Below the pieces are notes generated by a model. It did no database searches and was not told the origin of the DNA. It saw only the letters and a program-made list of their open reading frames with translations. The position numbers and the translations under genes were made by a program. A stretch of 64,000 nt of DNA from Escherichia phage vB_EcoM_G2248: the sequence record MK327932.1. One strand, given 5' to 3'. Positions 6,535 through 63,996 of the stretch are shown in pieces. Every line of letters begins with the position of its first letter. Position 1 is the stretch's first letter.

Positions 6535-8435
6535 CAAAGCAAAAGATTACACAAATTCCTGATATTTTTAATGCTGCTACATTCGATGAAATTAAAAGCG
6601 CATTAACAGACTGGATGAGAAACCAGGAAGAATTTAAAGATTTTGATTTTAATGGTGCTGGTATTAACGTATTGATGGACTTGCTCGCATATAATACCCT
6701 TTATATTCAGCAATTTGCCAACGCCGCGCTATATGAATCTTTTATCAGAACGGCAATTAAGCGTAGTTCAGTTGTTCAAGCCGCGCAAGATTTAGGATAT
6801 TTGCCAGCAAGTAAAACTAGTGCATCAACTACAATTATGTTGCATGTATCACATCCACGAAATCCGGCAAGTATTCGAATCCCACGAGGAACTAAATTTA
6901 TTGCAAGTGTGGATCGCCAGACTTCTTACCCATTTGTGACTACAGAAGACGTTGTGAGCGTTTTAGGTTCAAATGGTTTATATACGCCTATGCTTAAAGT
7001 CGCACAAGGTCGTATTGTTCGTACAGAAATGTTATTTGATCCGAAGAAACAAATTCTGATCCGCGACCCTGATATTGACCGCGCTCAGGTTAAGTTGTGG
7101 GTAGATGGTGCTGAATGGAAAGACTGGACACGAGAAAGCATTGTTAACGCAACTGGCGCTAGTAATATTTTCTATATGCGTGAAACCGTAGACGGTCATA
7201 CAGAAATCTTCTTTGGTGAAGGTGAATCAACTTTATCTGCTGCTGGCGGGGCGCTGGAAGCAAATTATATTGGTGGACTTAAGCCGTCAACTGGTGCTAA
7301 TATTGTTATCGAATATATTAGCACTAAAGGCGCGGAAGCAAACGGTTCAGTTAATTTTACATATGCGGATACCCTTGCATCTATCTCTATTGTTAAAATT
7401 ATTGAGAATCCGACAAATGATCGTGATTATGTCGGTGCAGATGGTGGTGGTGATCCTGAATCAATCGAACGTATCCGTGAACTTGCTCCGGTAATGCGTG
7501 AATCTCAGCGTCGTTGTGTTACTGCTTCTGACTATGAGGCTTTTGTATCTAGCCGTTTTGGTAGTATTGTTCAGGCGGTACAATGTTTCACCGACCGAGA
7601 AAAACCGGGTTATGCTTTTGTTGCGGTTAAGCCTAAATCTGGCTTGCGCTTGACAACTGTTCAAAAAGAAGATATGCGGGATTATCTGGCAAAATATAAT
7701 CTTGCCCCTATCACGCCGAGCATCATTGACCCTAACTATCTGTATATTAAACAGAATATTAAAGTTTCCTATTCAATCAATGACTTGTCAGAATCAGAGC
7801 AGTGGTTGCGAGGTGCGGTTATTGATCAGATAGATGCATATTATACCGACGAAGTGGAAATTTTTAACCAGACCTTTAGTAAGTCTAAAATGCTTGCTCG
7901 TATTGACAAGGCTGACGTGTCTGTGATAGGTTCTAGTGCAGAAATAGAGATGGTACGAGAGATCGACAACTTCTATAAAGCACCTATGGCTGGAATCAAG
8001 TTCTTAAACCAATATAAGAGCGGAATCAAGTCTAGTTCGTTCAACTTCGAAAAGGACGGTAAACAATACCCGATCCATTATGTAAGTACAGAAATGAACA
8101 AAGAATCAGGTTTAGCTAAATTGCTGGTTGGACCTTTCCCTGTTGGTTCTACAATCGCTTTACCGCACTATTCCGGCACTGATTTTGATAAAGAGGTTAT
8201 CGACGGTGCGGACCTATACTTTGAGGTTGGAGAGGTTCAGCATTATGAAGACCTTATTTCATGGGATCTGGGTAAACTGAATATCAATAGCGATCGCTTT
8301 ACTGGTTCATATATTGAGTTGACAGCTAAACCGATTGCTGATAACATTTTTACTAAAGACGGTTCTTTGATCGTGTTTGAAAACGATCTCCGTCCTCAGT
8401 ACACAACTATTAGTCTGGAGGCAATTGCTCAATGA
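6531..8435 (+). CDS. 6: gp6 baseplate wedge protein
   Basis: 634 aa (T4 660 aa), synteny. Confidence 0.75.
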
Positions 8436-11400
8436 TTAAAGCGCCTAGTGTAACTAGCTTGACAATAGAAAAATTGTCTGCTAATCAGGCGTATATCACA
8501 TGGGATGACGTAGGCGAAAACTTCTTTTATTTTGTGGAGTTAGCCGAAACCAGAACACGAGACGGGGAGATCATCCCCGTCGATGAGTTAAGCTGGGTAA
8601 ACCTGGGATATACTGCCGACCAAAACTGGTTTGAGGACAAAAACCTTTTTCCAGAATATTATTACAAGTTTCGTGTAGCAGTAGCCGCAGAAGGATTTGA
8701 ACAAAGTAAATGGATTGAAACCGAAGAATTTCAGACATTTAAAACAAACGCATATAATTTTTCTATGATGCGAGAGTTCAACCTTGCAAACGAGTTTGTT
8801 AAGCAAAAGTTTACATATGATAATCGTGATTATATTAAATTCAATACTGATTTAATTCAAGCATCATTGATGCAGGAAGATTTTGTTTTCAGTCCTGAAT
8901 ATGCAAACATCACAAATATTTCTAACAAAATTATTGTTGATGAAAACTTTCATGAAATACAGGATCACATAGAAAAAGTTTGTATTGATATAAACCGCAC
9001 TATGTTAGCGGAAATGAACGGTGTTTTGTACCTTTTCGAACGGTTCCAGCCGATCGTGAAAGTGTCAAATGATAAAGGTCAATCATGGAAAGCATATAAA
9101 GCGTTTAACGACCGTGTAGGCAATCCGGTTTCCCGTACATGCGTTTATCAGTCTAAAACCACTACTTACGTTTTAGGATATGACCGAATCTTTTACGGAC
9201 GACAAGCTAGAGATACTCGATGGAGCGCGGACGATGTTCGATTTAGTGATGATACGATCACTTTTGCAAAGGTTGGTGACGAGAACGATTTAGGCTTTGA
9301 CGTTGAGGTCTTTGGTGTATTTTCCAGATTAACAGGGGACACCACAAAATACGCCGAAGCTATGGCATGTAGTGATGACTATTTGTGGGTTGGTGCTAAG
9401 GATGTTATTCGCCGGATTCGTCTTAAGAATACTCCTGTTGATACCGTACAGGGTTCGCCTACGTTTGGAGAAAAAATATTCGATCCTGATGTTATCCGAG
9501 TAACAGGAAATGATAAAGCTGTCATTCAGAAAATGGATGTGATCGACGGTAAATTGCTTGTATTTGTTACTGGTGAAGTTAAACAGCGTTATCAAGATCC
9601 GACTAAACCTGAAAACGTTGTCCCGTCAGACGATGCGGGTGTATACTTAATTGGGAGTGATGGTCTGTCTTTTCAGAGAGTATTTGGCAACACTCCGCAG
9701 GAAAGGGAATATATTCATCATGGGTTCAGTAATATGTCAACCAATGGTGATGAGGTGTTCATAAGCCATTATAATCATCATTTCGAAAGCATTTTACCTG
9801 ATCCAGAAACTGCCGCGAAATATGAATTAAGCGAAGCTGTAAAATATTCTCAGGAGCCAACTTATCTAACTGATAAGAAAATACATCAAACTACTTTCAG
9901 AGCAAGTTATGATGATTTGCGTATTTGGGAATTAGGACCGCAAGCGTATTATAATGAGGCTGATTATACATGGATGCGTCGAAACGGTGTTCGTGTATGG
10001 ATCACAAATGATAATCGCCCGTTGGTTGTTTATCCAGAAGTTGTCTATACGCAGGAAGTTGATACTTCCGGCATTCTTGATAAAAACAGAATTAACCGTG
10101 AAGTTTATGATAAAGGGACCGTGACCTGTTATCTTAACAATGTTAAATTTGAAGGATTCAAACAATATGCATCCGGTGTAATGTTCCATAAAAACACGGG
10201 GGAGATCATTGGGTTCTATCAATTTAACTATCGCGTTCGTGATCAGGTTGGTGTATATTGGAAACCTACAAATGTAGCATTTGTTGCTGAATTGCAAAAT
10301 CAGGTTCGGGAGGTTCCCTGGGTTCCGGTTCACTACGATCGAGAGCAAGATCCAGATTTGCGACCTTTACTGAATAAGATGACACCGGATAGCTTTTTAC
10401 TTGAGAACGAAAATTTCAGAAAATTCTCTGAATATTATCTGCAATTCTTAAGTGATGGTTCAGGAACATATTATAATAAACTAAAAAATCTGATTAAAAA
10501 CAAATATCCACGCGAGCAAGATGCATATGAGTATCTTTGGTCAGAGATGAACAAACGAAACATCTATGCAGATAAAAACAAGCGAGATGCGGTCGTAAGA
10601 TTCTTTGAATCCCGCAAATCAGATTTTTATTCCACTAAGGGCGTGGAGGCTTCTTACAAGTTCTTGTTTAAGTTACTTTATAATGAAGATGTGGAAATTG
10701 AGGTTGAATCACAAGCCGGACTAGAGTATGATATTGTTGTTAGTTCAACGAACATTGACGAGGATATCGTAGGTCGCACGATTTATACTCCAACCGGACG
10801 GGCTAACGTGACGTATCTTGAAAGGGAATATGAAGGTGGACGTCTACGCTGGCGAGTAACCATTCATAACCTGATCGGGCGGTTTGAAGAAGGTCAAGTG
10901 ATCAAATCAGAGAAAACAGCGTTTGAGGGGATGATCCTTGTTGGTGTACGTGGTAAAGAGTTGTTGAGTAGTTCAATCGACTATATCAACCGCTCACGAA
11001 GCCAATACACCATGAAGATTAAAAGTGCATTGCCAGTTTCGCGCTATGCAAATGATGTAATGCGATTCGTTCATCCTGTCGGCTTTGGGTTTATCGGTGT
11101 TACCCTGCTTACGATGTTCATTAACAGCGGGTTAAGTATGAGACACGTAGAAACTATAATTCAATCTCTGAAAAATTATAAGTTTGACAGCGGATTGCCT
11201 AGCGTGTATCCTGATCGTGTTGCTGATCTTGATGTTGATGGAAATATTAAGATTGACCCACTAACAGGGAAACCATTATACTTAACGTCACCGACAATTG
11301 GCGAAGAGTTCCCTGTTCCTCCTGAATATGATCAGGAGAACAGCGAATTGTTCCACGGACTTAAAGCAAGCGAACGAAGATTTGCAATGAGTCCACTGTT

Positions 11401-54792: not shown

Positions 54793-55272
54793 TGCTAAAT
54801 CATTGCAGTATTTTAGTGCCTTAGTTTGAAATTCTGCGCTGTTAAGTTCTTCATAACGGTCATAATCACCGTTTAATGCTGCCTTTCTTGCTTCTTGCTC
54901 TATCTGCATGTCAGACATGATAATACAGCGATCCCGTGCTTTCAGCTTCTCAAGTTGTATAGACTCTTCTTTCTGTTTGCGCAATTCTTCTTGACGCTTC
55001 TTTTCTTCTCGTGCTTTCTCTTCCCGCGCTTCTTTGATTGCATCCTTGAACATCTGCGTTTGTGGTGCTAAACCAACTTTAACGCGATCCACGTCTCGAC
55101 GTTCCATTTTAGAAATAAAGCATGATTCGATCTGATCATCACTTGCATATGCTGCTTTACATTCACGAAGCAAGAAAACCGGATCTGATTTAGCATTCAT
55201 CATAGCTTCCATGTTGGCACAACCAGTAAGCATGAATGCAGCCGCAAGACCAATCAGTTTAATCATTTTCAT
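54787..55272 (-). CDS. putative lipoprotein with coiled-coil region
   Basis: signal peptide plus lipobox LTGC near N-terminus; E/K-rich helical segment. Confidence 0.55.
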   Translation of the reverse strand: MKMIKLIGLAAAFMLTGCANMEAMMNAKSDPVFLLRECKAAYASDDQIESCFISKMERRDVDRVKVGLAPQTQMFKDAIKEAREEKAREEKKRQEELRKQKEESIQLEKLKARDRCIIMSDMQIEQEARKAALNGDYDRYEELNSAEFQTKALKYCNDLAK

Positions 55273-56093
55273 TTAGTCACCTCACCGAAAATTGTAAATT
55301 GTCTACGATTCTCATCGCCGAAAGATTCTACTACGTCGTTTACCTTGACGCAAGTCCCGCGCGGTAAAATTACTTCACATTCGCAAGGATTCCATGCAAT
55401 TGACCCAACAACAAAACCTTTATGATCTTTTACGTCAATTACCCATGATACATTACAAGAATGTTGCATCTTTCCGGTCATTGATTCATATCGATTCTCA
55501 CAATAAAGGCTAGTGCTGTTTGATAGCCATCCTCCAAAGATGATCGGTGTCATGCTGGTCGATACAAAGTTTTTAAAGGTAAACTCCTTATCTTCAATGA
55601 TGCGCTCTATTGTCTGAATGTCAAGATGTTGACCGCGATAAAGAGTACCGTTTAACTTTTCGGTTTTATCCATGACACAATCCATCAAATCAACAATCTC
55701 TGATATCTCATCGGTCATGTCTTCTTCCCCTAAGAGAGCACCATTTACCCATTCGTATTGTTCAGATACATAATCACAGATTGCATTATATTCTGCTGGG
55801 GTTATGTTGTTATGTTTGTAATGTTTGAATACATTATCTCCAAAGTCTTCGGAGTGTACTTCATACATCACATTAATGATTTTCTTGACAAATCCATAAT
55901 CTTGTGTCTCGCGCTCAAGGAAGCGGATAACCTTCACATAATCATCAAAGTTAATCTGATCGCTGATCATCTCAGTGATCATGTAACCATTAATACCCTC
56001 AATGTCATATGTTTCGATGTAATTATCCATACGTTCCATCATTGATTCGCGTGATTCTTCTGAAAGACGAAAATCCTGTAATTTCTTGAACAT
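55269..56093 (-). CDS. ADP-ribosyltransferase paralog (Alt/Mod-like catalytic domain)
   Basis: R-STS-ExE signature: LYRGQ, FVSTSMT, NPCECEVILPRG. Confidence 0.65.
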   Translation of the reverse strand: MFKKLQDFRLSEESRESMMERMDNYIETYDIEGINGYMITEMISDQINFDDYVKVIRFLERETQDYGFVKKIINVMYEVHSEDFGDNVFKHYKHNNITPAEYNAICDYVSEQYEWVNGALLGEEDMTDEISEIVDLMDCVMDKTEKLNGTLYRGQHLDIQTIERIIEDKEFTFKNFVSTSMTPIIFGGWLSNSTSLYCENRYESMTGKMQHSCNVSWVIDVKDHKGFVVGSIAWNPCECEVILPRGTCVKVNDVVESFGDENRRQFTIFGEVTK

Positions 56094-56171: not shown

Positions 56172-58223
56172 TTACATTTTAAATTTATCTGGCATTGCGT
56201 CTACAGATACCAGATCAGCGATAAGCTGACGTAGAGTTGCCTTATCTGCTTTCTTACGTTCGGTTTTAGCTTCGCTAATGAAGCTGGAGAAAGACAGGTC
56301 AGAAGCAGGTTTAACAACACCTTCACGGATGAATGCATCACCGTCCGCGATCATCTCGCCAGATTCTTGTAATGCTGCCAGTTCATTTTTGTTCATAATA
56401 TGTGCCTCAATGTAATAAGTTTCTTGTGAATCCGTCGATGCCGTAGCACGAGTTACCGTATCAAAGGATAACACAACACCGCGAGGAAGTAAAATCTCGC
56501 ATTCTTTGTAAGCAAATGCTTTGTTACCTACTGGCAAGACAGGGATGTTTTCCGCGCCAGCAATGGAGAAAGCAACATTAGCGCCACCTTCACCGCGAGA
56601 GCCAGCCATAGAATCAACACCAGCAACGGCACTAGCCACGTTTGCATTCCAGCCGCCAAAAATGTTAGGTGCAAGGGAAGTGCTCACATAGTTTTTAAAG
56701 TAAAACGCTTTTTGCTTACGTGCAGTTTCCCACATTTGCGACCGGAAGTCCATACCACGATACAGAATAGTACCCGGATCAAGTTTAACGCCATAGTTGG
56801 AGAAGGCATTATCCAGTGCATCGCACATCTTGACCAATTCTTCTGGATCTGAGATGCCTTCAAACTCTTCCAGCTTACGATCAGTTAGGAAGTTGTTCAT
56901 ATTGATGTATGCTGCATCGGCATATTCGCTCAACACAAAACCTTCCGCGCCTGGCAGATCAAGATCAATATCTGCCATCATTTCACCCATGTTACTAGCA
57001 ATTGCTTCAAACATACCGGAAGCAACATTACGCAGGGCATCGGTTTTAATCTGGGTGATATGACTACGCAGCATTTCAGCTTTTACATCTGCTGGCATAG
57101 ACTGGTCTACTCGATCCATTGCCAGGGCGGTGATCTTGTTTTCGAATACTTCCTCGCTCATGATTTCTTTTAAGCGTTTGATTGATGCTGCGATAACTTC
57201 CGCAGACAACGGATCATATTGATCCTGAACTTTTACCAGTTCGCTTACTGCGTATTTTGCATCGGCTTCGCTTTCAAAAATAGTACGCATGAAACCATAG
57301 CGAGTGATAATATCACTTGTCCAGTCATTCAGAGAACGGGCGGTTGAACGTTCTAAGGCTTGACGATCAATCAGAGTATTAAACTGTTTCTTAGGTTCGG
57401 CTTCGGTGATATCTTCTTCCGGTTTAAGATTAATTTTTTCTGGATGATTCACATAGTCGCTGTTATAGGTCGCTTGAGTTTTCAGCATTTCTTCTTTAGT
57501 CAAACGAGATTTAGCCGCTACGCGTTGTTCCGCTTCCGCGTTTCGTTCTTCTTCTGACACCAGACTAGCCGCATACGCCTCATCTTTAGTCAGAGATTCA
57601 CCAGTAGCCTTAGATACCCAGCGATCACCTAAATCACTTTCTACTTTAGTGAACAAGGAATCATCAAGTTTAATCCCTTTAATCTTATCAATCGCCATAC
57701 CGCGACGCTTGACAACAACTAAAGCGATCTTTTTGCTGGTCATTACTTCCTGCTGGAATACTTCAAACTTCGGTGTACGACGCACCAAACGCTCTATAAC
57801 GCGCTTAACCAGTTCGGTCTTACCTTTCATGCGGGATACGTTAAAACGGAACATAACAGCGTCTAATTGCGCTTTACGGGCTGTTTCCATAACCACATCA
57901 AAAGCACTTGCCATAACTGCAATCGGGTTATCGCCTAGACCATTTTTAAGCTGTACAATACGACCGCTTTTGTTCATTTCGCACAGTACAACATGTGCGG
58001 TCTTGTCACCCATACGAATGATTTTAGGTGTTTTGTTGGTGAAGTTACAAAGACGGACAATCACATCTTTATCGCGTGTCTGTACTGCAAAAAGCTGTTT
58101 AGGATTCTGCTTAGGCTTTAAGCACTGTACCGGAGCAATACTGCCAAAGTTTTCTTCCTCTTCCGTCAACAGCCATTTCTCGAAAGATTCAATCATTAGA
58201 TCGTCGATTTCTAAGTTAAACAT
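56172..58223 (-). CDS. alt: Alt-like ADP-ribosyltransferase (packaged internal head protein)
   Basis: 683 aa (T4 Alt 682 aa); ILYRGM, YVSTSLAP, AYKECEILLPRG. Confidence 0.8.
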   Translation of the reverse strand: MFNLEIDDLMIESFEKWLLTEEEENFGSIAPVQCLKPKQNPKQLFAVQTRDKDVIVRLCNFTNKTPKIIRMGDKTAHVVLCEMNKSGRIVQLKNGLGDNPIAVMASAFDVVMETARKAQLDAVMFRFNVSRMKGKTELVKRVIERLVRRTPKFEVFQQEVMTSKKIALVVVKRRGMAIDKIKGIKLDDSLFTKVESDLGDRWVSKATGESLTKDEAYAASLVSEEERNAEAEQRVAAKSRLTKEEMLKTQATYNSDYVNHPEKINLKPEEDITEAEPKKQFNTLIDRQALERSTARSLNDWTSDIITRYGFMRTIFESEADAKYAVSELVKVQDQYDPLSAEVIAASIKRLKEIMSEEVFENKITALAMDRVDQSMPADVKAEMLRSHITQIKTDALRNVASGMFEAIASNMGEMMADIDLDLPGAEGFVLSEYADAAYINMNNFLTDRKLEEFEGISDPEELVKMCDALDNAFSNYGVKLDPGTILYRGMDFRSQMWETARKQKAFYFKNYVSTSLAPNIFGGWNANVASAVAGVDSMAGSRGEGGANVAFSIAGAENIPVLPVGNKAFAYKECEILLPRGVVLSFDTVTRATASTDSQETYYIEAHIMNKNELAALQESGEMIADGDAFIREGVVKPASDLSFSSFISEAKTERKKADKATLRQLIADLVSVDAMPDKFKM

Positions 58224-58503: not shown

Positions 58504-58539
58504 TTGATACTCCTTAGTAGTTCGTTTCGGTATGGGTGT

Positions 58540-58568
58540 ATTATGATATACACCCTCTGTTATGTCAA
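58540..58568 (-). promoter_or_regulatory. sigma70-type early promoter (TTGACA-N17-CATAAT, minus strand)
   Basis: plus strand shows attatg..tgtcaa; conserved leader cataccgaaacgaa and RBS follow. Confidence 0.6.
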
Positions 58569-58581
58569 CAACTTTTAGAAC

Positions 58582-58755
58582 ATTTTTGAAATTAATTCTG
58601 CTTTGATTTCGCAGAGAACATCTAAAGATTTCTCGTCACCCGCTTTTGCTGCTTCTGCTTGCATTTTTGAAATGGCTTCAATCTCAGTGCAATTATAAGC
58701 CGCTTGAACTTTAGCGATTGCGATGATTGCCGATTCGATGGTTAAGTGTTTCATG
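58582..58755 (-). CDS. small hypothetical early protein (57 aa)
   Basis: ATG behind conserved leader and GGAGAA RBS; below ORF-track cutoff. Confidence 0.4.
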
Positions 58756-58786
58756 TTTGATTCTCCTTTCGTTTCGGTATGTGTGC

Positions 58787-58815
58787 ATTATAGGGGATCG
58801 GTGACCCCCTGTCAA
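58787..58815 (-). promoter_or_regulatory. sigma70-type early promoter (TTGACA-N17-TATAAT, minus strand)
   Basis: perfect consensus hexamers; palindromic GC-rich spacer. Confidence 0.65.
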
Positions 58816-58822
58816 CAACTTT

Positions 58823-59341
58823 TTAGTTATTTTTTAATTGTTCATCTTGCAATAATGCAATCACATGCTGGCGATGTTCTTCCGATTGAGGCACACCGAA
58901 AAAGTTTGTTTTGTAGAAATACTCTAATCGGTCTTCTCGTGTGCTCTCTTCCATCATGATCGCGGGTAGTCCGAGATTTCGGAAACGTCGCTTTTCTGCT
59001 GGCGTAAAATCACTGTAATACAACATAGAATCATCATTACCAGCAATGCTAAACTCATCATTCATGAAGGAGAATATTGCGTTTAAACGCTGTTTACCGT
59101 CCACGATTTCGATCTCATAGCGAGAGCCATCATCAATCTTAGCCATTGCGATAGCACCAACCGGAAAATCATTAATCAGGTTTTCGATAAACATACGTTT
59201 GTTTTCGGTGTCCCATACCAAAGGACGCTGATAATCTGGGTTCATGTTGATATATCCATCTTCTAACCACGCCTCATAAACAGAGATGACAAAGTTTTTA
59301 GTATTGGTATAGTAACGGCGTTTAGGCGTTAAACGGTTCAT
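58823..59341 (-). CDS. stand-alone DUF262 (ParB/Srx-like) domain protein
   Basis: PDYQRPLVWD, FIENLINDFPVGAI and EIVDGKQRLNAI match the DUF262 signature (YQR..W / DGQQRL); start at ATG ~59341 preferred. Confidence 0.6.
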   Translation of the reverse strand: MNRLTPKRRYYTNTKNFVISVYEAWLEDGYINMNPDYQRPLVWDTENKRMFIENLINDFPVGAIAMAKIDDGSRYEIEIVDGKQRLNAIFSFMNDEFSIAGNDDSMLYYSDFTPAEKRRFRNLGLPAIMMEESTREDRLEYFYKTNFFGVPQSEEHRQHVIALLQDEQLKNN

Positions 59342-59342
59342 G

Positions 59343-59675
59343 TTATAGTCTCCTGAATGGATCATCACGTAAATCAATATCTTTTAAGAACTCATCCCAT
59401 GAATGGCGGATATTGTTCTTAATTCTCCAGATAAGCGCAGGGATTGAACGCTCTCCCATCTGGAAGTATGGATCATATGATCCGTATGCCCAATATGCTA
59501 CTACAATTCCACAATCAGCGCAATAGTATTCTATTTCACTTGCTGGCGACCAAAGTCCATCAATATGATCGGTGATCTTGCTTTCGATGTTATGGCTATG
59601 ACAATCAGGGCAACGGATGCAATGACCTTGTTTATCGTAATTTGACGTTAGCGAATACTTAAACAATCTCATCAT
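59343..59675 (-). CDS. zinc-finger-like small protein (110 aa)
   Basis: CIRCPDCHSH ... CADCG Cys pairs; overlaps neighbours by 4 nt. Confidence 0.5.
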   Translation of the reverse strand: MMRLFKYSLTSNYDKQGHCIRCPDCHSHNIESKITDHIDGLWSPASEIEYYCADCGIVVAYWAYGSYDPYFQMGERSIPALIWRIKNNIRHSWDEFLKDIDLRDDPFRRL

Positions 59676-60388
59676 AGATCCTTATTTGCTTCAAATACTG
59701 CCTTTGCGAATCCTCGCGGGGTAAGTGACCTGATAGTCTTTGTTTTCGTTCCTTTCCCGCCTAGCTTAGAATGCTGTTTACTGTACCCTTTATTAATCTG
59801 CAAAGGTTTCTTTTCTGGCATTATAAAGCCTTGTCCGGTCCATAAGCAAGTCTTTTTCGGGTACATATCACGGGCGGCAATATACTCAGGAAAAGTAGGA
59901 TGTTTATCATCTTCCGGCAAATAACCGCCATATTCCCACGGATGGAACATATAATCAGGCTTACGCCACATGCTAGAGATAACGCTTACAGGATTCTCTA
60001 TCATGTAGGGAACTCCTAGCCATTCACCCAAATAAGCGGTTATTTTAGCTGCCCTTACATCATGAACTTGAATCAATGGTCCTTGCTCTCGTTTCTTTCG
60101 TTCAAAGTGTGCAGCGCCACTAACAGCTAAATTGGTGCACGGTGGGAATGCAAAGATAATATCCGGTTTCCCCCATTCAAGGTCCATTGCTCTTTCCAGC
60201 CAGTTCAAATCAATCCATGTGTTTACATAGGTAATGTTTGGATGTTCAAATCGGGTATTATACTTTTTGTATGTACCGTGGTCGCCATCGTCAGCATTAA
60301 AGCAGATCACCTTATGACCTGCTTTAGCCCATTCTAACCCCATTATCCCCGATCCGTCAAAGTTGCAGAATATTAATTTTTGTTTCAC
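59672..60388 (-). CDS. minimal C5-methyltransferase-like protein (238 aa; motifs I, IV, VI, no obvious target-recognition domain)
   Basis: FCNFDGSGIMGLEWAKAG (FxGxG), IIFAFPPCTNLAVSG (PC catalytic Cys), YMIENPVSV (ENV-like); GTG start overlapping upstream stop. Confidence 0.5.
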   Translation of the reverse strand: MKQKLIFCNFDGSGIMGLEWAKAGHKVICFNADDGDHGTYKKYNTRFEHPNITYVNTWIDLNWLERAMDLEWGKPDIIFAFPPCTNLAVSGAAHFERKKREQGPLIQVHDVRAAKITAYLGEWLGVPYMIENPVSVISSMWRKPDYMFHPWEYGGYLPEDDKHPTFPEYIAARDMYPKKTCLWTGQGFIMPEKKPLQINKGYSKQHSKLGGKGTKTKTIRSLTPRGFAKAVFEANKDL

Positions 60389-60636: not shown

Positions 60637-60676
60637 TGTTTGATTCTCCTAAGTGGTATCTCGTCTTGATGGTTGC

Positions 60677-60705
60677 ATTGTAGGGGAGTTATCCTCCCCT
60701 GTCAA
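60677..60705 (-). promoter_or_regulatory. sigma70-type early promoter (TTGACA-N17-TACAAT, minus strand)
   Basis: palindromic spacer ggggaggataactcccc; conserved leader. Confidence 0.6.
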
Positions 60706-60712
60706 CACTTTT

Positions 60713-60886
60713 TATAAAATTATTTGTTAATTTCTGGTGCGTTGCTAGGATAGTAACCTTCTTTAACTCCGAGGTATTTCGCAACCATCCCTACAATCTT
60801 CTGTGCTACTACAATGTCAAATTTCAGATAATCTTCGCCGTGGGTTTCAATGATATATGCTTCACATGCTGCTTTAGTCTCGAACA
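60713..60886 (-). CDS. small hypothetical early protein (57 aa)
   Basis: ATG behind conserved leader/RBS; below ORF-track cutoff. Confidence 0.4.
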
Positions 60887-60920
60887 TTTTGATTCTCCTA
60901 TTTCGTTTCGGTATGTGTGT

Positions 60921-60949
60921 AGTATAGGGGATCTCCCGATCCCCGTCAA
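60921..60949 (-). promoter_or_regulatory. sigma70-type early promoter (TTGACG-N17-TATACT, minus strand)
   Basis: same cassette architecture and leader as the other copies. Confidence 0.5.
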
Positions 60950-60963
60950 CAACTTTTTTAAAA

Positions 60964-61245
60964 TTATTCGTGATTAGTTTCGATGTTGTGCATTTTGCAC
61001 CAGTTCAGCCAATCACCCAGATCCTGATAGTTAATGCTTTTATCTGCTGCCATCGTTTTTGTCTTGATACCCATATGTGCGTTATGAGTAAGCATTTTTA
61101 CAGTGAACTCGATTTTATCGCCTTTAGCTTTAACATCAACCAGTTTGGTCCACTGGCTACCAGCGCCGCGAATGTTCATGCCAACGATGTTTCCGATGTA
61201 TGCTTCTTTGTTTTTCATGATTTCGGTTGCTTTGATGAATTTCAT
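60964..61245 (-). CDS. hypothetical 93-aa early protein
   Basis: ORF behind promoter cassette. Confidence 0.5.
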   Translation of the reverse strand: MKFIKATEIMKNKEAYIGNIVGMNIRGAGSQWTKLVDVKAKGDKIEFTVKMLTHNAHMGIKTKTMAADKSINYQDLGDWLNWCKMHNIETNHE

Positions 61246-61278
61246 TTTTGATTCTCCAATTCGTTTCGGTATGGGTGT

Positions 61279-61307
61279 ATTATGCTATGTTCTTACTTTG
61301 GTGTCAA
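61279..61307 (-). promoter_or_regulatory. sigma70-type early promoter (TTGACA-N17-CATAAT, minus strand)
   Basis: plus strand attatg..tgtcaa; conserved leader. Confidence 0.6.
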
Positions 61308-61314
61308 CAACTTT

Positions 61315-61584
61315 TTAGATATTTTCAGAAATAAATTTTAAAACTTGACGTAAATGTTTCTCATCTTTGATAGTCGCCGGAAGTTCTTCTTTTACTTCTT
61401 GTGCAAGATAGATATTTCCGTTCCAAGTGAAAGATCCGTCTTCGTTTACGCGATAGCTGAACATCCACTCGCAATCATTTTCGATTTCATATACACACAG
61501 AAGGGTGTAATCGTTAAAGCTATTGATTTCAAGGTCGAAGCCGTGACGTTTTGCAAAGTTGGTAGTGGTTTTAGTCAGTACCAT
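61315..61584 (-). CDS. hypothetical 89-aa early protein
   Basis: ORF behind promoter cassette. Confidence 0.5.
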   Translation of the reverse strand: MVLTKTTTNFAKRHGFDLEINSFNDYTLLCVYEIENDCEWMFSYRVNEDGSFTWNGNIYLAQEVKEELPATIKDEKHLRQVLKFISENI

Positions 61585-61624
61585 TGTTTGATTCTCCTAA
61601 GTGGTATCTCGTTTCGATGGTTGT

Positions 61625-61653
61625 ATTATGCTATACACAGGATCTGGTGTCAA
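61625..61653 (-). promoter_or_regulatory. sigma70-type early promoter (TTGACA-N17-CATAAT, minus strand)
   Basis: plus strand attatg..tgtcaa; conserved leader. Confidence 0.6.
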
Positions 61654-61678
61654 TACCTTTTTTAAAAATTTTGGCAAT

Positions 61679-61708
61679 AAAAAAGCCGACACTAAGGTCG
61701 GCTAATAA
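61679..61708 (-). terminator. rho-independent terminator (minus strand) after gene 61711-62019
   Basis: reverse complement agccgaccttagtgtcggc followed by TTTTTTATT. Confidence 0.65.
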
Positions 61709-61710
61709 AA

Positions 61711-62019
61711 TCAACGAGATAGATAATCGTTTTGCGCGATCTGGTCGGCGTATGCTGGTGTTACGTCAATCGCCAGCACTTTAACGCGTGCTTTCTTGCG
61801 ACCTGGGTTTTCTCGTAACCAGTGCTCATGACCGTGAACATTTTTATACTGCGATGCTTCTTCGAAGGTACGGATCGGACCTGGGTAATCAGCGTAAAGG
61901 ATCTCTAGATCTTCGGTGATGTAAAAATATACATCGTAATTGCTGTTCTCTAGCTTAAGCAGAGACTTTCGGAACATTGGGAGATTTTCGCGGGTAAATT
62001 CAAAGATATTATCTTTCAT
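61711..62019 (-). CDS. small early protein, HxHW-family paralog 1
   Basis: HGHEHW and VLAIDVT motifs shared with three downstream paralogs. Confidence 0.5.
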   Translation of the reverse strand: MKDNIFEFTRENLPMFRKSLLKLENSNYDVYFYITEDLEILYADYPGPIRTFEEASQYKNVHGHEHWLRENPGRKKARVKVLAIDVTPAYADQIAQNDYLSR

Positions 62020-62045
62020 AGTATTATCCTCAATAGTTGGATGAA

Positions 62046-62072
62046 AAGGGGGGGGGGGGCTTAATGCCCCGT
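62046..62072 (-). terminator. terminator hairpin containing a 12-nt G/C homopolymer tract
   Basis: minus strand reads ggggcattaagcccc + C-run + TTTT; G12 at 62048-62059 on plus. Confidence 0.45.
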
Positions 62073-62075
62073 ATA

Positions 62076-62363
62076 TTAAAACAGTCCTTCCTGTACACCG
62101 TAGTAGAGTTCATCGCTGATAATTTCATTAATGCGACGGTGTGCATATTCCTGATTTGCGAAGTTGTCAGCAAGTTCTACTTTAGTTTCGCCGTCATGAG
62201 TCCATTTAGTGATAACTTTACCATCTGCAAATTTGAAGTTGAACTCTTTAGCTACCGCATCGCGTACCAGACGTGCAAACTTATTGTTGCGGATTGCATT
62301 GTCGGTTTCGTGTGCAGCGTGAGCGAATTTGTTAACTTTCAGAGTGATAGTAATGTATGCCAT
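62076..62363 (-). CDS. hypothetical 95-aa early protein
   Basis: ORF behind promoter cassette 62410-62438. Confidence 0.5.
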   Translation of the reverse strand: MAYITITLKVNKFAHAAHETDNAIRNNKFARLVRDAVAKEFNFKFADGKVITKWTHDGETKVELADNFANQEYAHRRINEIISDELYYGVQEGLF

Positions 62364-62409
62364 AATTTGATTCTCCTAGTTAGAAAGTGTATCTCGTTTC
62401 GATGGGGAT

Positions 62410-62438
62410 ATTATGCTATATCCCCGATCCGGTGTCAA
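62410..62438 (-). promoter_or_regulatory. sigma70-type early promoter (TTGACA-N17-CATAAT, minus strand)
   Basis: plus strand attatg..tgtcaa; conserved leader. Confidence 0.6.
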
Positions 62439-62444
62439 CACTTT

Positions 62445-62723
62445 TTATAAAATAATTTTTTGATATTTTTCTATGATGTTCGTGTAAGTCACATCAACCG
62501 CTAGCACCGTTGCTTCGAATCCACCGTTTAGCCAATGGCTATGATCATGATCGTGAAAGAAACCTAGACCAGTACGAAGACCTTCTTTATATTCTGCGCG
62601 TACATTCAGTTTGTCGTCGATAAACAGATAAAACCATGAATTTTTACTAGGATTGATGATACAACCTTTCAGATTAGGGAGAATATCACGACTAAGAATA
62701 AACTTATCACCTACTTTGAACAT
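62445..62723 (-). CDS. small early protein, HxHW-family paralog 2
   Basis: start at ATG ~62723 (GAGGA RBS); HDHSHW, VLAVDVT. Confidence 0.5.
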   Translation of the reverse strand: MFKVGDKFILSRDILPNLKGCIINPSKNSWFYLFIDDKLNVRAEYKEGLRTGLGFFHDHDHSHWLNGGFEATVLAVDVTYTNIIEKYQKIIL

Positions 62724-62737
62724 AATATTTTCCTCAC

Positions 62738-63046
62738 TTATAAAGTTTGACCGTTGTTTTTCGCGTAATGCTGAATGCGTGCTTGATCTGCTTCCGCTGG
62801 TGATAGATTCCATGCGATCACTACAACTTCTGGCGCATCATGATCATTATCACTTACCCAATGATTATGATTCATACAATTGTTTGCTATCGCGTGAGCA
62901 AATGATCTCATTACCGGAGACGTATAATCATAGTAACGGATTTTCAGATTTTCATCAACGTACAAGTAGATCGTATACGGCTTATATTCAGTAACCAGTA
63001 ACAGACAGTTACGCAATTCTGGGAAAATCTTTTTAGTTAATTTCAT
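62738..63046 (-). CDS. small early protein, HxHW-family paralog 3
   Basis: start at ATG ~63046 (GAGGA RBS); NHNHW, VVIAWNL. Confidence 0.5.
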   Translation of the reverse strand: MKLTKKIFPELRNCLLLVTEYKPYTIYLYVDENLKIRYYDYTSPVMRSFAHAIANNCMNHNHWVSDNDHDAPEVVVIAWNLSPAEADQARIQHYAKNNGQTL

Positions 63047-63047
63047 T

Positions 63048-63266
63048 TTATAATCCTCGGTCGCGGCTATAGTACACGGTACGCCATACAATTTCATGTT
63101 TCGTGTCGCTCCAGCACACGATCTCATTTACTCTTAAATCTTTGTTATCAACAAAAGATGAACATTGTGACGCTTCTTTCATCATTTTATCTGCTGTTTT
63201 CTCATCAAATACAGCACAGATTTCTTTATACACTCGATAATCTTTGAATTGACTCTGGATACCCAT
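63048..63266 (-). CDS. small early protein, FKDY-family paralog 1
   Basis: FKDYRVYKEI..KMMKEASQCSSF; in-frame ATG at 63266 preferred over GTG at 63278. Confidence 0.45.
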   Translation of the reverse strand: MGIQSQFKDYRVYKEICAVFDEKTADKMMKEASQCSSFVDNKDLRVNEIVCWSDTKHEIVWRTVYYSRDRGL

Positions 63267-63268
63267 AA

Positions 63269-63478
63269 TTAACACCACTCAAGAGTTTTTGAAAACACAT
63301 CTATCCATTGTTGAGTATATGCGGTTTCTTTCCATGAGACAATACCAGTAGAATAATGGTTTTTGTTTCCAGAAAAGGACGGGCATTTTGATGCATCTTC
63401 CATCATCTTTTCGGCGAACTCTGGTTCGTATACTCGCAAGATCTGTTGATATGCTTTATAATCTTTAAATTTGCTCAT
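63269..63478 (-). CDS. small early protein, FKDY-family paralog 2
   Basis: FKDYKAYQQI..KMMEDASKCPSF aligns with neighbouring paralog. Confidence 0.45.
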   Translation of the reverse strand: MSKFKDYKAYQQILRVYEPEFAEKMMEDASKCPSFSGNKNHYSTGIVSWKETAYTQQWIDVFSKTLEWC

Positions 63479-63743
63479 AATCGTTAACTACCTTATCAGC
63501 TTCTTTTATTGTTTTTACATCAACTGCGATAACCCGTAAAGGTTCGTCATGGTTCCACCAATGATCGTGAATATCGGCTTGTGATTTATCACCAAAGGAA
63601 TCACGAATATCATTTTTACATTTATAGCTAATGTGACCGTCATAGTCAACATAAAGGTAATTATCGAAAATCGGCGTTTTTAAGATCATACCGAAAAATC
63701 TTTCTTTGTGTGTCTTATCCAGCGTTGCAGTAATTCGCATCAT
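63465..63743 (-). CDS. small early protein, HxHW-family paralog 4
   Basis: IHDHWW, VIAVDVKT. Confidence 0.5.
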   Translation of the reverse strand: MMRITATLDKTHKERFFGMILKTPIFDNYLYVDYDGHISYKCKNDIRDSFGDKSQADIHDHWWNHDEPLRVIAVDVKTIKEADKVVNDYEQI

Positions 63744-63967: not shown

Positions 63968-63996
63968 ATCTTACTACTCCCTTTAATCATTGTCAA
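63968..63996 (-). promoter_or_regulatory. probable early promoter (TTGACA with weak -10 TAAGAT, minus strand) at window edge
   Basis: tgtcaa at 63991-63996; -10 is a poor match. Confidence 0.35.

Follow-up and report, generated by a model that had tools for sequence, protein, structure and literature searches.

A six-member family of small accessory proteins with a conserved F...HxHW signature in the hyperplastic region of RB49-like phages

The right end of the DNA analysed here, a stretch of 64,000 nucleotides (nt) from Escherichia phage vB_EcoM_G2248 (MK327932.1; hereinafter, the window), carries four small genes, all on the minus strand, that encode the proteins denoted A (102 amino acids (aa); 61711..62019), B (92 aa; 62445..62723), C (102 aa; 62738..63046) and D (92 aa; 63465..63743). 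The original prediction, made from the DNA sequence alone, was that these four genes form a family of early paralogs with a shared histidine cluster. The open reading frame (ORF) list places the genes exactly where they had been proposed, and each is preceded by a GAGGA-type ribosome-binding site (Shine-Dalgarno) located 7-8 nt 5' of the ATG. All four have syntenic counterparts in phage RB49 (NC_005066), namely, RB49p197 (ORF197), RB49p199 (ORF199), RB49p200 (ORF200) and RB49p203 (ORF203), respectively. This part of the genome is well conserved in Krischvirus (Straboviridae), the genus of RB49-like, T4-type coliphages, more than 50 genomes of which show 94-97% identity to the last 3 kb of the window. 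The 2-kb block containing the four genes is matched by 56 Krischvirus records, with a coverage of 61-100% that reaches at least 80% in 53 of the 56.

The homology of the four proteins is readily demonstrable. Pairwise BLASTP comparisons connect each protein with every other one, with E-values of 9e-15 for A and C, 4e-6 for A and B, 3e-5 for B and C, 6e-5 for B and D, 4e-4 for A and D, and 7e-3 for C and D, the identity among the paralogs being 21-36%. The PHROGs database assigns A and C to phrog_9345 (E-values of 4e-49 and 5e-50, respectively), B to phrog_17255 (2e-65) and D to phrog_15972 (6e-59), and the independent A/C profile, phrog_9345, is also matched by B (7e-5) and D (3e-3), so that the proposed paralogy is corroborated. 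In the MAFFT alignment, the three blocks that had been predicted to be shared by these proteins are positionally equivalent, that is, the strand block Y(L/F)(Y/F)(I/V)(D/T)(E/D), the His cluster and the second hydrophobic block each occupy the same columns in all four proteins. The His cluster takes the form of HGHEHW in A, HDHSHW in B, NHNHW in C and HDHWW in D, with H-x-H-W at residues 64-67 of A (nt 61819-61830), 61-64 of B (nt 62532-62543), 60-63 of C (nt 62858-62869) and 59-62 of D (nt 63558-63569). Accordingly, what holds of the proposed HxHxHW cluster is the aligned H-x-H-W, whereas the first His is missing in C and D and is replaced with Tyr in protein A of phage phiS. The second block is present and aligned as well, in the versions VLAIDV, VLAVDV and VIAVDV as opposed to VIAWNL in C, but its Asp is replaced with Asn or Gly in several members.

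The original count of four members proves too low. Searching the neighbouring DNA in G37-3 with a profile of the four proteins and their homologs, we detected two additional minus-strand members that are located just beyond the right end of the window, namely, E (100 aa; ...KGHTHWLG...VLAVDV), the equivalent of RB49 ORF208, and F (96 aa; ...THNHWYEG...), the equivalent of RB49 ORF206. In the sequences of two relatives, denoted L001 and L002, these two members are found, also on the minus strand, at 9587-9877 and 10111-10413, and at 7016-7309 and 7575-7895, respectively. A census of the whole RB49 genome yielded exactly six members, and the same six are present in ECD7, JK32, Phi1 and JSE. When the motif itself was sought in phage DNA, the pattern H.HW was encountered five times among the six-frame ORFs of RB49 (1,567 ORFs of at least 40 aa), each time within a member of the family. 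Thus, the aligned motifs, the BLASTP E-values, the PHROG cross-matches and the restriction of H.HW to the family in RB49 indicate that the observation is real and not due to chance. In an alignment of 28 sequences, the size of the family proteins being approximately 90-106 aa, the invariant residues are one Phe, the second His and the Trp, and the first His of H-x-H-W is nearly invariant; the invariant Phe is located approximately 12 residues upstream of H-x-H-W. Variable positions include the extra His of HxHxHW, the Asp of AxDV and the acidic residue that follows strand 3. In protein F (ORF206) of RB49 and ECD7, the motif reads SNHW; the other phages have HNHW in this position.

Outside Krischvirus phages, the family is present only in a few uncultured relatives. 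When 1.84 billion representative proteins were searched exhaustively with HMMER, 15 clusters were detected at E<1e-3, one of which is a spurious repeat protein, and a word-indexed search of 5.8 billion proteins produced 54 matches; one protein-database cluster matched by a family member includes only proteins named 'hypothetical protein'. When the most divergent metagenomic members were compared by tblastn to 50,697 phage genomes, only Krischvirus-type coliphage records were matched, and a scan of IMG/VR for the A/C types revealed two Krischvirus-like contigs and no others. A more distant uncultured relative is represented by a 2.1-kb metagenomic contig (L007, from Logan SRR8048117) that encodes five domains of the family in four adjacent genes, the gene order being E', a homolog of ORF204, a 203-aa tandem fusion of two domains, D' and C'. 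The natural tandem fusion (P0055) is encoded on the plus strand of this contig, at 823-1434; the IMG/VR scan revealed no relative of the fusion protein.

AlphaFold2 (AF2) modelling suggests that the family has a single shared fold. The models of A (mean predicted local distance difference test (pLDDT) score of 81.6 and predicted template modelling (pTM) score of 0.77) and B (pLDDT 85.0, pTM 0.79) show the same order of elements, beta-alpha-beta-beta-beta-alpha-alpha-beta-alpha, that is, beta1, a short helix, beta2-beta3-beta4, a helix, a short helix that starts at HxHW, beta5 and a C-terminal helix. The F...HxHW signature lies in the predicted insertion between beta4 and beta5, the most conserved part of the protein, and the rest varies, as judged from the 28 sequences and the models of A and B. 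A Foldseek search of BFVD with the model of A retrieved Krischvirus proteins only, including the other paralogs, with a probability of 1.0 for the six best matches and template modelling (TM) scores up to 0.77, the value obtained for the BFVD model of C from phage PHB13; a Pseudoalteromonas phage protein appeared in this search with an E-value of 0.16. The weak Foldseek matches of both models included Cif and other papain-like sheets, YopQ, mS34, and AcrIIA7 and Tad2 of the DUF2829 fold, and those of the B model additionally included several SH3-like barrels, all of which we treat as leads only. Structure prediction, which had been suggested as a check of the family, thus yields no unrelated folds, the A and B models sharing their element order and the BFVD models of paralogs matching A, and this favours the finding. 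Hence the family has one shared predicted fold, with no confident structural relative. None of the six proteins contains transmembrane or signal-like hydrophobic segments, the number of cysteines is 0-2 per protein, and the isoelectric points are 5.6-6.9 for A-D, 5.1 for E and 4.2 for F. By these properties, the family members are predicted to be soluble cytoplasmic proteins that, except for F, are not strongly acidic as DNA mimics are.

All six genes are maintained by selection. The median ratios of nonsynonymous to synonymous substitution rates (dN/dS; Nei-Gojobori estimates, 5-8 genomes per ortholog group) are 0.21 for A, 0.11 for B, 0.21 for C, 0.14 for D, 0.17 for E and 0.18 for F, which is the signature of coding genes evolving under purifying selection. 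The implication that this is a rapidly diversifying arsenal is therefore not supported: the paralogs, at the level of identity indicated above, are ancient, conservation within each ortholog group is 85-100% throughout the genus, and the family is not diversifying rapidly. At the same time, the complement of these genes is plastic. Phage phiS lacks E and F; the A gene is frameshifted in JSE, before HxHW (L013, 1995-2302), and in kvi, after HxHW, with the same +1 frame read after the shift in both proteins; JSE also has a split F and, in place of B and C, two divergent C-type alleles; and Phi1 possesses a divergent D allele. The frameshift in JSE could be a sequencing error because it adjoins what in the window is an A5 run. 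From these losses, frameshifts and swaps in some phages, each member is individually dispensable or exchangeable.

In annotated relatives, the block of genes that includes A-D is located between the alt gene region and the DNA ligase gene (gene 30), and all its genes are labelled 'hypothetical protein'. This is the same region as the hyperplastic region (HPR) of RB49 and phi1, which encompasses ORF190-211 (Arbiol et al. 2010, PMC2839356; Comeau et al. 2014, PMC4122927) and which, similarly to the region described here, shows indels and allele swaps between related phages. These studies treat the regulatory and recombination cassette of the region; the proteins themselves are not described there. 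The cassettes in question, denoted PeSL (promoter-early/stem-loop), are known from RB49 and phi1, where they were described both as promoter/terminator units and as sites of recombination (PMC2839356). In that work, two PeSLs of this region behaved as promoters in lacZ fusions, the sole wild-type PeSL lacZ clone obtained yielding approximately 13,000 Miller units, and one PeSL stem-loop worked as a terminator. The window contains the same repeated elements, a family of seven copies of 64-75 nt on the minus strand at 58.5-62.5 kb, within the last 5.5 kb, that combine a predicted early promoter with a stem-loop (58519-58595, 58768-58842, 60656-60719, 60902-60976, 61258-61334, 61604-61680 and 62389-62452). 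By location, a variable region between core modules that is syntenic with RB49 ORF190-211, and by the predicted promoter and stem-loop elements that precede or flank them, the family genes belong to the PeSL-associated ORFan genes, the copies tested in PMC2839356 being other ones. Unlike the PeSL-ORFan cassettes proper, only some of the family genes directly adjoin a PeSL, and D, C and B lie behind one common upstream promoter.

The latter is a predicted sigma-70-type early promoter on the minus strand, TTGACA-17-TAAGAT at 63968..63996, downstream of which the genes ORF204, D, ORF202, ORF201, C and B follow one another with overlaps or with spacers of no more than about 15 nt. ORF201 and ORF202 (63048..63478, minus strand), which separate C from D and are apparently co-transcribed with them, do not belong to the family. 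They form a second pair of paralogs, of approximately 70 aa each (63048-63278 and 63269-63478, minus strand), both assigned to phrog_8471, with the common pattern KDY.xY..I..V(F/Y)(D/E)....A(D/E)KMM(K/E)(E/D)AS(Q/K)C(S/P)SF. B and A are separated by ORF198 (62076..62363, minus strand), which encodes a 95-aa protein of phrog_7474 that was not matched by the family profile. The PeSL located between B and ORF198, on the minus strand at 62389..62452, contains a promoter, TTGACA-17-CATAAT at 62438-62410, that overlaps the GGGGATAT/ATATCCCC stem-loop and is predicted to drive ORF198 and, through read-through, A. Another sigma-70-type promoter, also TTGACA-17-CATAAT, is found on the minus strand at 61653-61625, and all three promoters are predicted to be strong. 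Between ORF198 and A, at 62044..62070 on the minus strand, there is a terminator- or attenuator-like hairpin, GGGGC-ATTAA-GCCCC, followed by a C run and TTTT; the run consists of 12 C (62048-62059, minus strand) and, as a homopolymer, could vary in length and modulate the read-through into A. Directly after the stop codon of A, at 61684..61703 on the minus strand, an intrinsic-terminator-like hairpin with a 7 bp stem followed by TTTTTAT is likely to end the transcription unit that contains A; in G37-3, terminators are annotated at the equivalents of both hairpins. The proposal that the paralogs lie under early promoters is borne out by the sigma-70-type promoters in the repeated PeSL cassettes, and it is from the type of these promoters that we infer the early timing of the family genes. 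Taken together, these genes make up one of the early accessory ORFan families that occupy the hyperplastic regions of T4-type phages.

Comparison with known protein families revealed no significant match to a family of known function. No member reached the threshold in Pfam (28 members searched) or NCBIfam, PHROGs contained no functional family for these proteins, and the profile search of sequences from the PDB yielded nothing for the whole family, and only YdhK for the B/E profile. A match to T4_Y03C (E-value of 0.1) is spurious and non-collinear. The arrangement of H-x-H with an upstream acidic residue and a downstream Asp resembles the JAB/MPN (JAMM) and PROCT domains, and B orthologs alone show a sub-threshold match to PROCT (E-value of 0.0017; 18.7 bits against a cutoff of 23.6). 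Membership in the JAB/MPN family (E...H-x-H-x7-S-x2-D) can be rejected, since the E, S and D ligands vary and no match to the MPN fold was obtained, and so can membership in the HIT family (H-phi-H-phi-H-phi-phi), in view of the polar intervening residues, the non-conserved first His and the lack of a HIT fold match.

A further candidate was DUF1541 (YdhK/CopL), a His/Met copper-binding lipoprotein domain of Firmicutes. A structural model led to the proposal that copper is bound by His and Met residues conserved in this domain (PMC5947656). In the B/E types, the first 50 residues are similar to both YdhK repeats (GDxVxL..hMKGMKGA..h....tvYmVDY), with hmmsearch E-values of 0.0026-0.0041 for the B/E-type profile, and DUF1541 ends in a conserved NHKWV, its own conserved signature also including HMKGMKG. 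The YdhK score is partly an artefact, the His-tag used for crystallisation being aligned with HxH. We gathered 34 PF07563 proteins and compared the family with 24 PF07563 sequences using hhalign; homology was rejected on the basis of probabilities of only 4.7% for the B/E profile and 0.25% for the whole family, along with the lack of any Pfam match in the 28 members.

With respect to the function of the family, we tentatively favour the view that the conserved F...HxHW insertion is a common functional site that, most likely, would bind a divalent metal or a small ligand. Each chain has only two conserved candidate ligand residues, so that a complete site would probably require a homo- or heterodimer. 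The variable N- and C-termini and surfaces may provide each paralog with a partner of its own. Acting in the first minutes of infection, the proteins would be stoichiometric binders or modulators of host components, involved in host takeover or counter-defence, and not enzymes. This reading, a family of small stoichiometric binders in which His residues provide the metal or ligand site, appears to us a serious candidate that falls somewhat short of being probable. The natural tandem fusion fits the notion of two domains working together, which amounts to weak, Rosetta-stone support. A more specific version, under which this is a new small fold whose insertions pair across a dimer as a His4 metal or ligand site, and the paralogs form a combined set of early effectors, every one of which neutralises its own host factor or defence system, is conceivable although rather unlikely; if correct, these dimeric effectors would constitute a previously unrecognised class of counter-defence or host-takeover proteins specific to RB49-like phages.

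Several observations weigh against a metal- or ligand-binding site. The family as a whole shares no more than two candidate ligands, those of H-x-H, too few for a complete metal site in one monomer to be evident from the sequence, and RB49 ORF206 lacks the first His of the motif, yet purifying selection continues to act on it. The motif opens a short helix beside the least confident part of the models, the loop that precedes it (in A, residues 61-63 have a pLDDT below 50; in B, the block averages 64), and the predicted geometry is uncertain. The fusion protein is known from a single 2.1-kb metagenomic contig, and neither the profile searches nor the fold searches produced a significant match to any known metal-binding, sponge, inhibitor or anti-defence family. 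As for the host-takeover or anti-defence arsenal invoked in the original prediction, the context is there, an accessory hyperplastic region in which the neighbours include ADP-ribosyltransferases, an annotated DNA methyltransferase and a GmrSD_N gene, but the analysis revealed no link of the family proteins to a host target or a defence system. Both an anti-defence role and metal binding are plausible as hypotheses.

The same conserved residues might have a purely structural role. HxHW could cap a helix, with the Trp and Phe packing the insertion onto the barrel, in which case the proteins would be metal-free protein-protein inhibitors or adaptors, with divergent surfaces for different host proteins. 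We consider this alternative possible but not likely. Much less probable, in our estimation, is a role as small-molecule sponges or minimal hydrolases that remove immune signalling nucleotides, in the manner of Tad2, Acb2, Acb1 and Apyc1, with a His and Trp pocket at an oligomer interface. The weak fold matches to the DUF2829 proteins Tad2 and AcrIIA7 are a lead in this direction; their scores fall short of every accepted threshold, and neither the sequence searches nor Pfam yielded a match. HxHW is not known to be a signature of DUF2829.

Equally improbable is the possibility that these are SH3-like (KOW-like) small barrels that bind nucleic acid or the transcription or translation machinery, for an early retuning of host expression. 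The N-terminus of B does contain a KOW-like pattern, KVGDKFIL...LKGCII, and SH3-like barrels are among the leads for its model. However, no member of the family matches Pfam KOW, the A, C and D types lack the KVGD pattern, and the net charge ranges from neutral to strongly acidic, which is poorly suited to nucleic-acid binding; the hhalign probabilities for DUF1541 (4.7% and 0.25%) and the His-tag contribution to the YdhK score speak against this reading as well. Finally, that these are non-functional ORFs, or that the similarity stems from chance or composition, might be suggested by the 'hypothetical protein' annotation throughout and by the frameshifts in A in two phages, but is refuted by BLASTP E-values down to 9e-15, dN/dS of 0.11-0.21 in every ortholog group, conserved ribosome-binding sites, confident AF2 models and a 2-kb block mostly kept in 56 of the 56 matching Krischvirus records, so that its probability is negligible.

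Small early ORFans of mostly obscure function take up much of the genome in T4-type phages. Time and again, new host biology has emerged from those that have been solved, among them topoisomerase inhibitors, anti-restriction proteins, nucleotide sponges and ADP-ribosyltransferases. In the present case, what was already known is that the proteins exist as hypothetical entries in three function-less PHROG families, and the region and the PeSL cassettes have been published. New are the unification into one six-member family, the F...HxHW signature, the fold prediction, and the profile of selection and plasticity: phrog_9345, phrog_17255 and phrog_15972, which PHROGs keep apart as families of unknown function, comprise the same proteins as RB49 ORF197, ORF199, ORF200 and ORF203, and are merged here with two further RB49 ORFs, ORF206 and ORF208. 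The RB49 and phi1 genome papers that we searched do not mention the common origin, the count of six members or the F...HxHW signature, and the literature on defence, anti-defence and ORFans of Krischvirus and RB49 yielded no functional data on these ORFs. Because the family is narrow, being limited to one phage genus and a few metagenomic relatives, and its proposed functions are hypotheses, this is for now a useful annotation and a list of candidates and not a discovery. Nevertheless, the precise signature, the confident predicted fold, the purifying selection, the natural knock-outs and the allele swaps provide handles for experiments.

The neighbourhood of the family genes includes several other genes that merit mention, all on the minus strand. 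Two tandem genes encode ADP-ribosyltransferases that both match ADPrib_exo_Tox, namely, an Alt-like protein of 683 aa (56172-58223) and a shorter paralog of 274 aa (55269-56093). A 184-aa protein (58823-59377) consists of the GmrSD_N domain alone (DUF262, with the ParB-like motif DGKQR; Pfam E-value of 5e-20), without the C-terminal nuclease domain; a stand-alone protein of this kind might act as a decoy for, or an inhibitor of, type IV restriction, or else as an NTPase module. The 238-aa ortholog of RB49p189 (59672-60388) is annotated 'DNA methyltransferase' and shows no Pfam match at E-values up to 0.01, and it overlaps the start of a gene for a 110-aa Zn-ribbon protein (59343-59675) with a weak TFIIB-type match (E-value of 6e-4).

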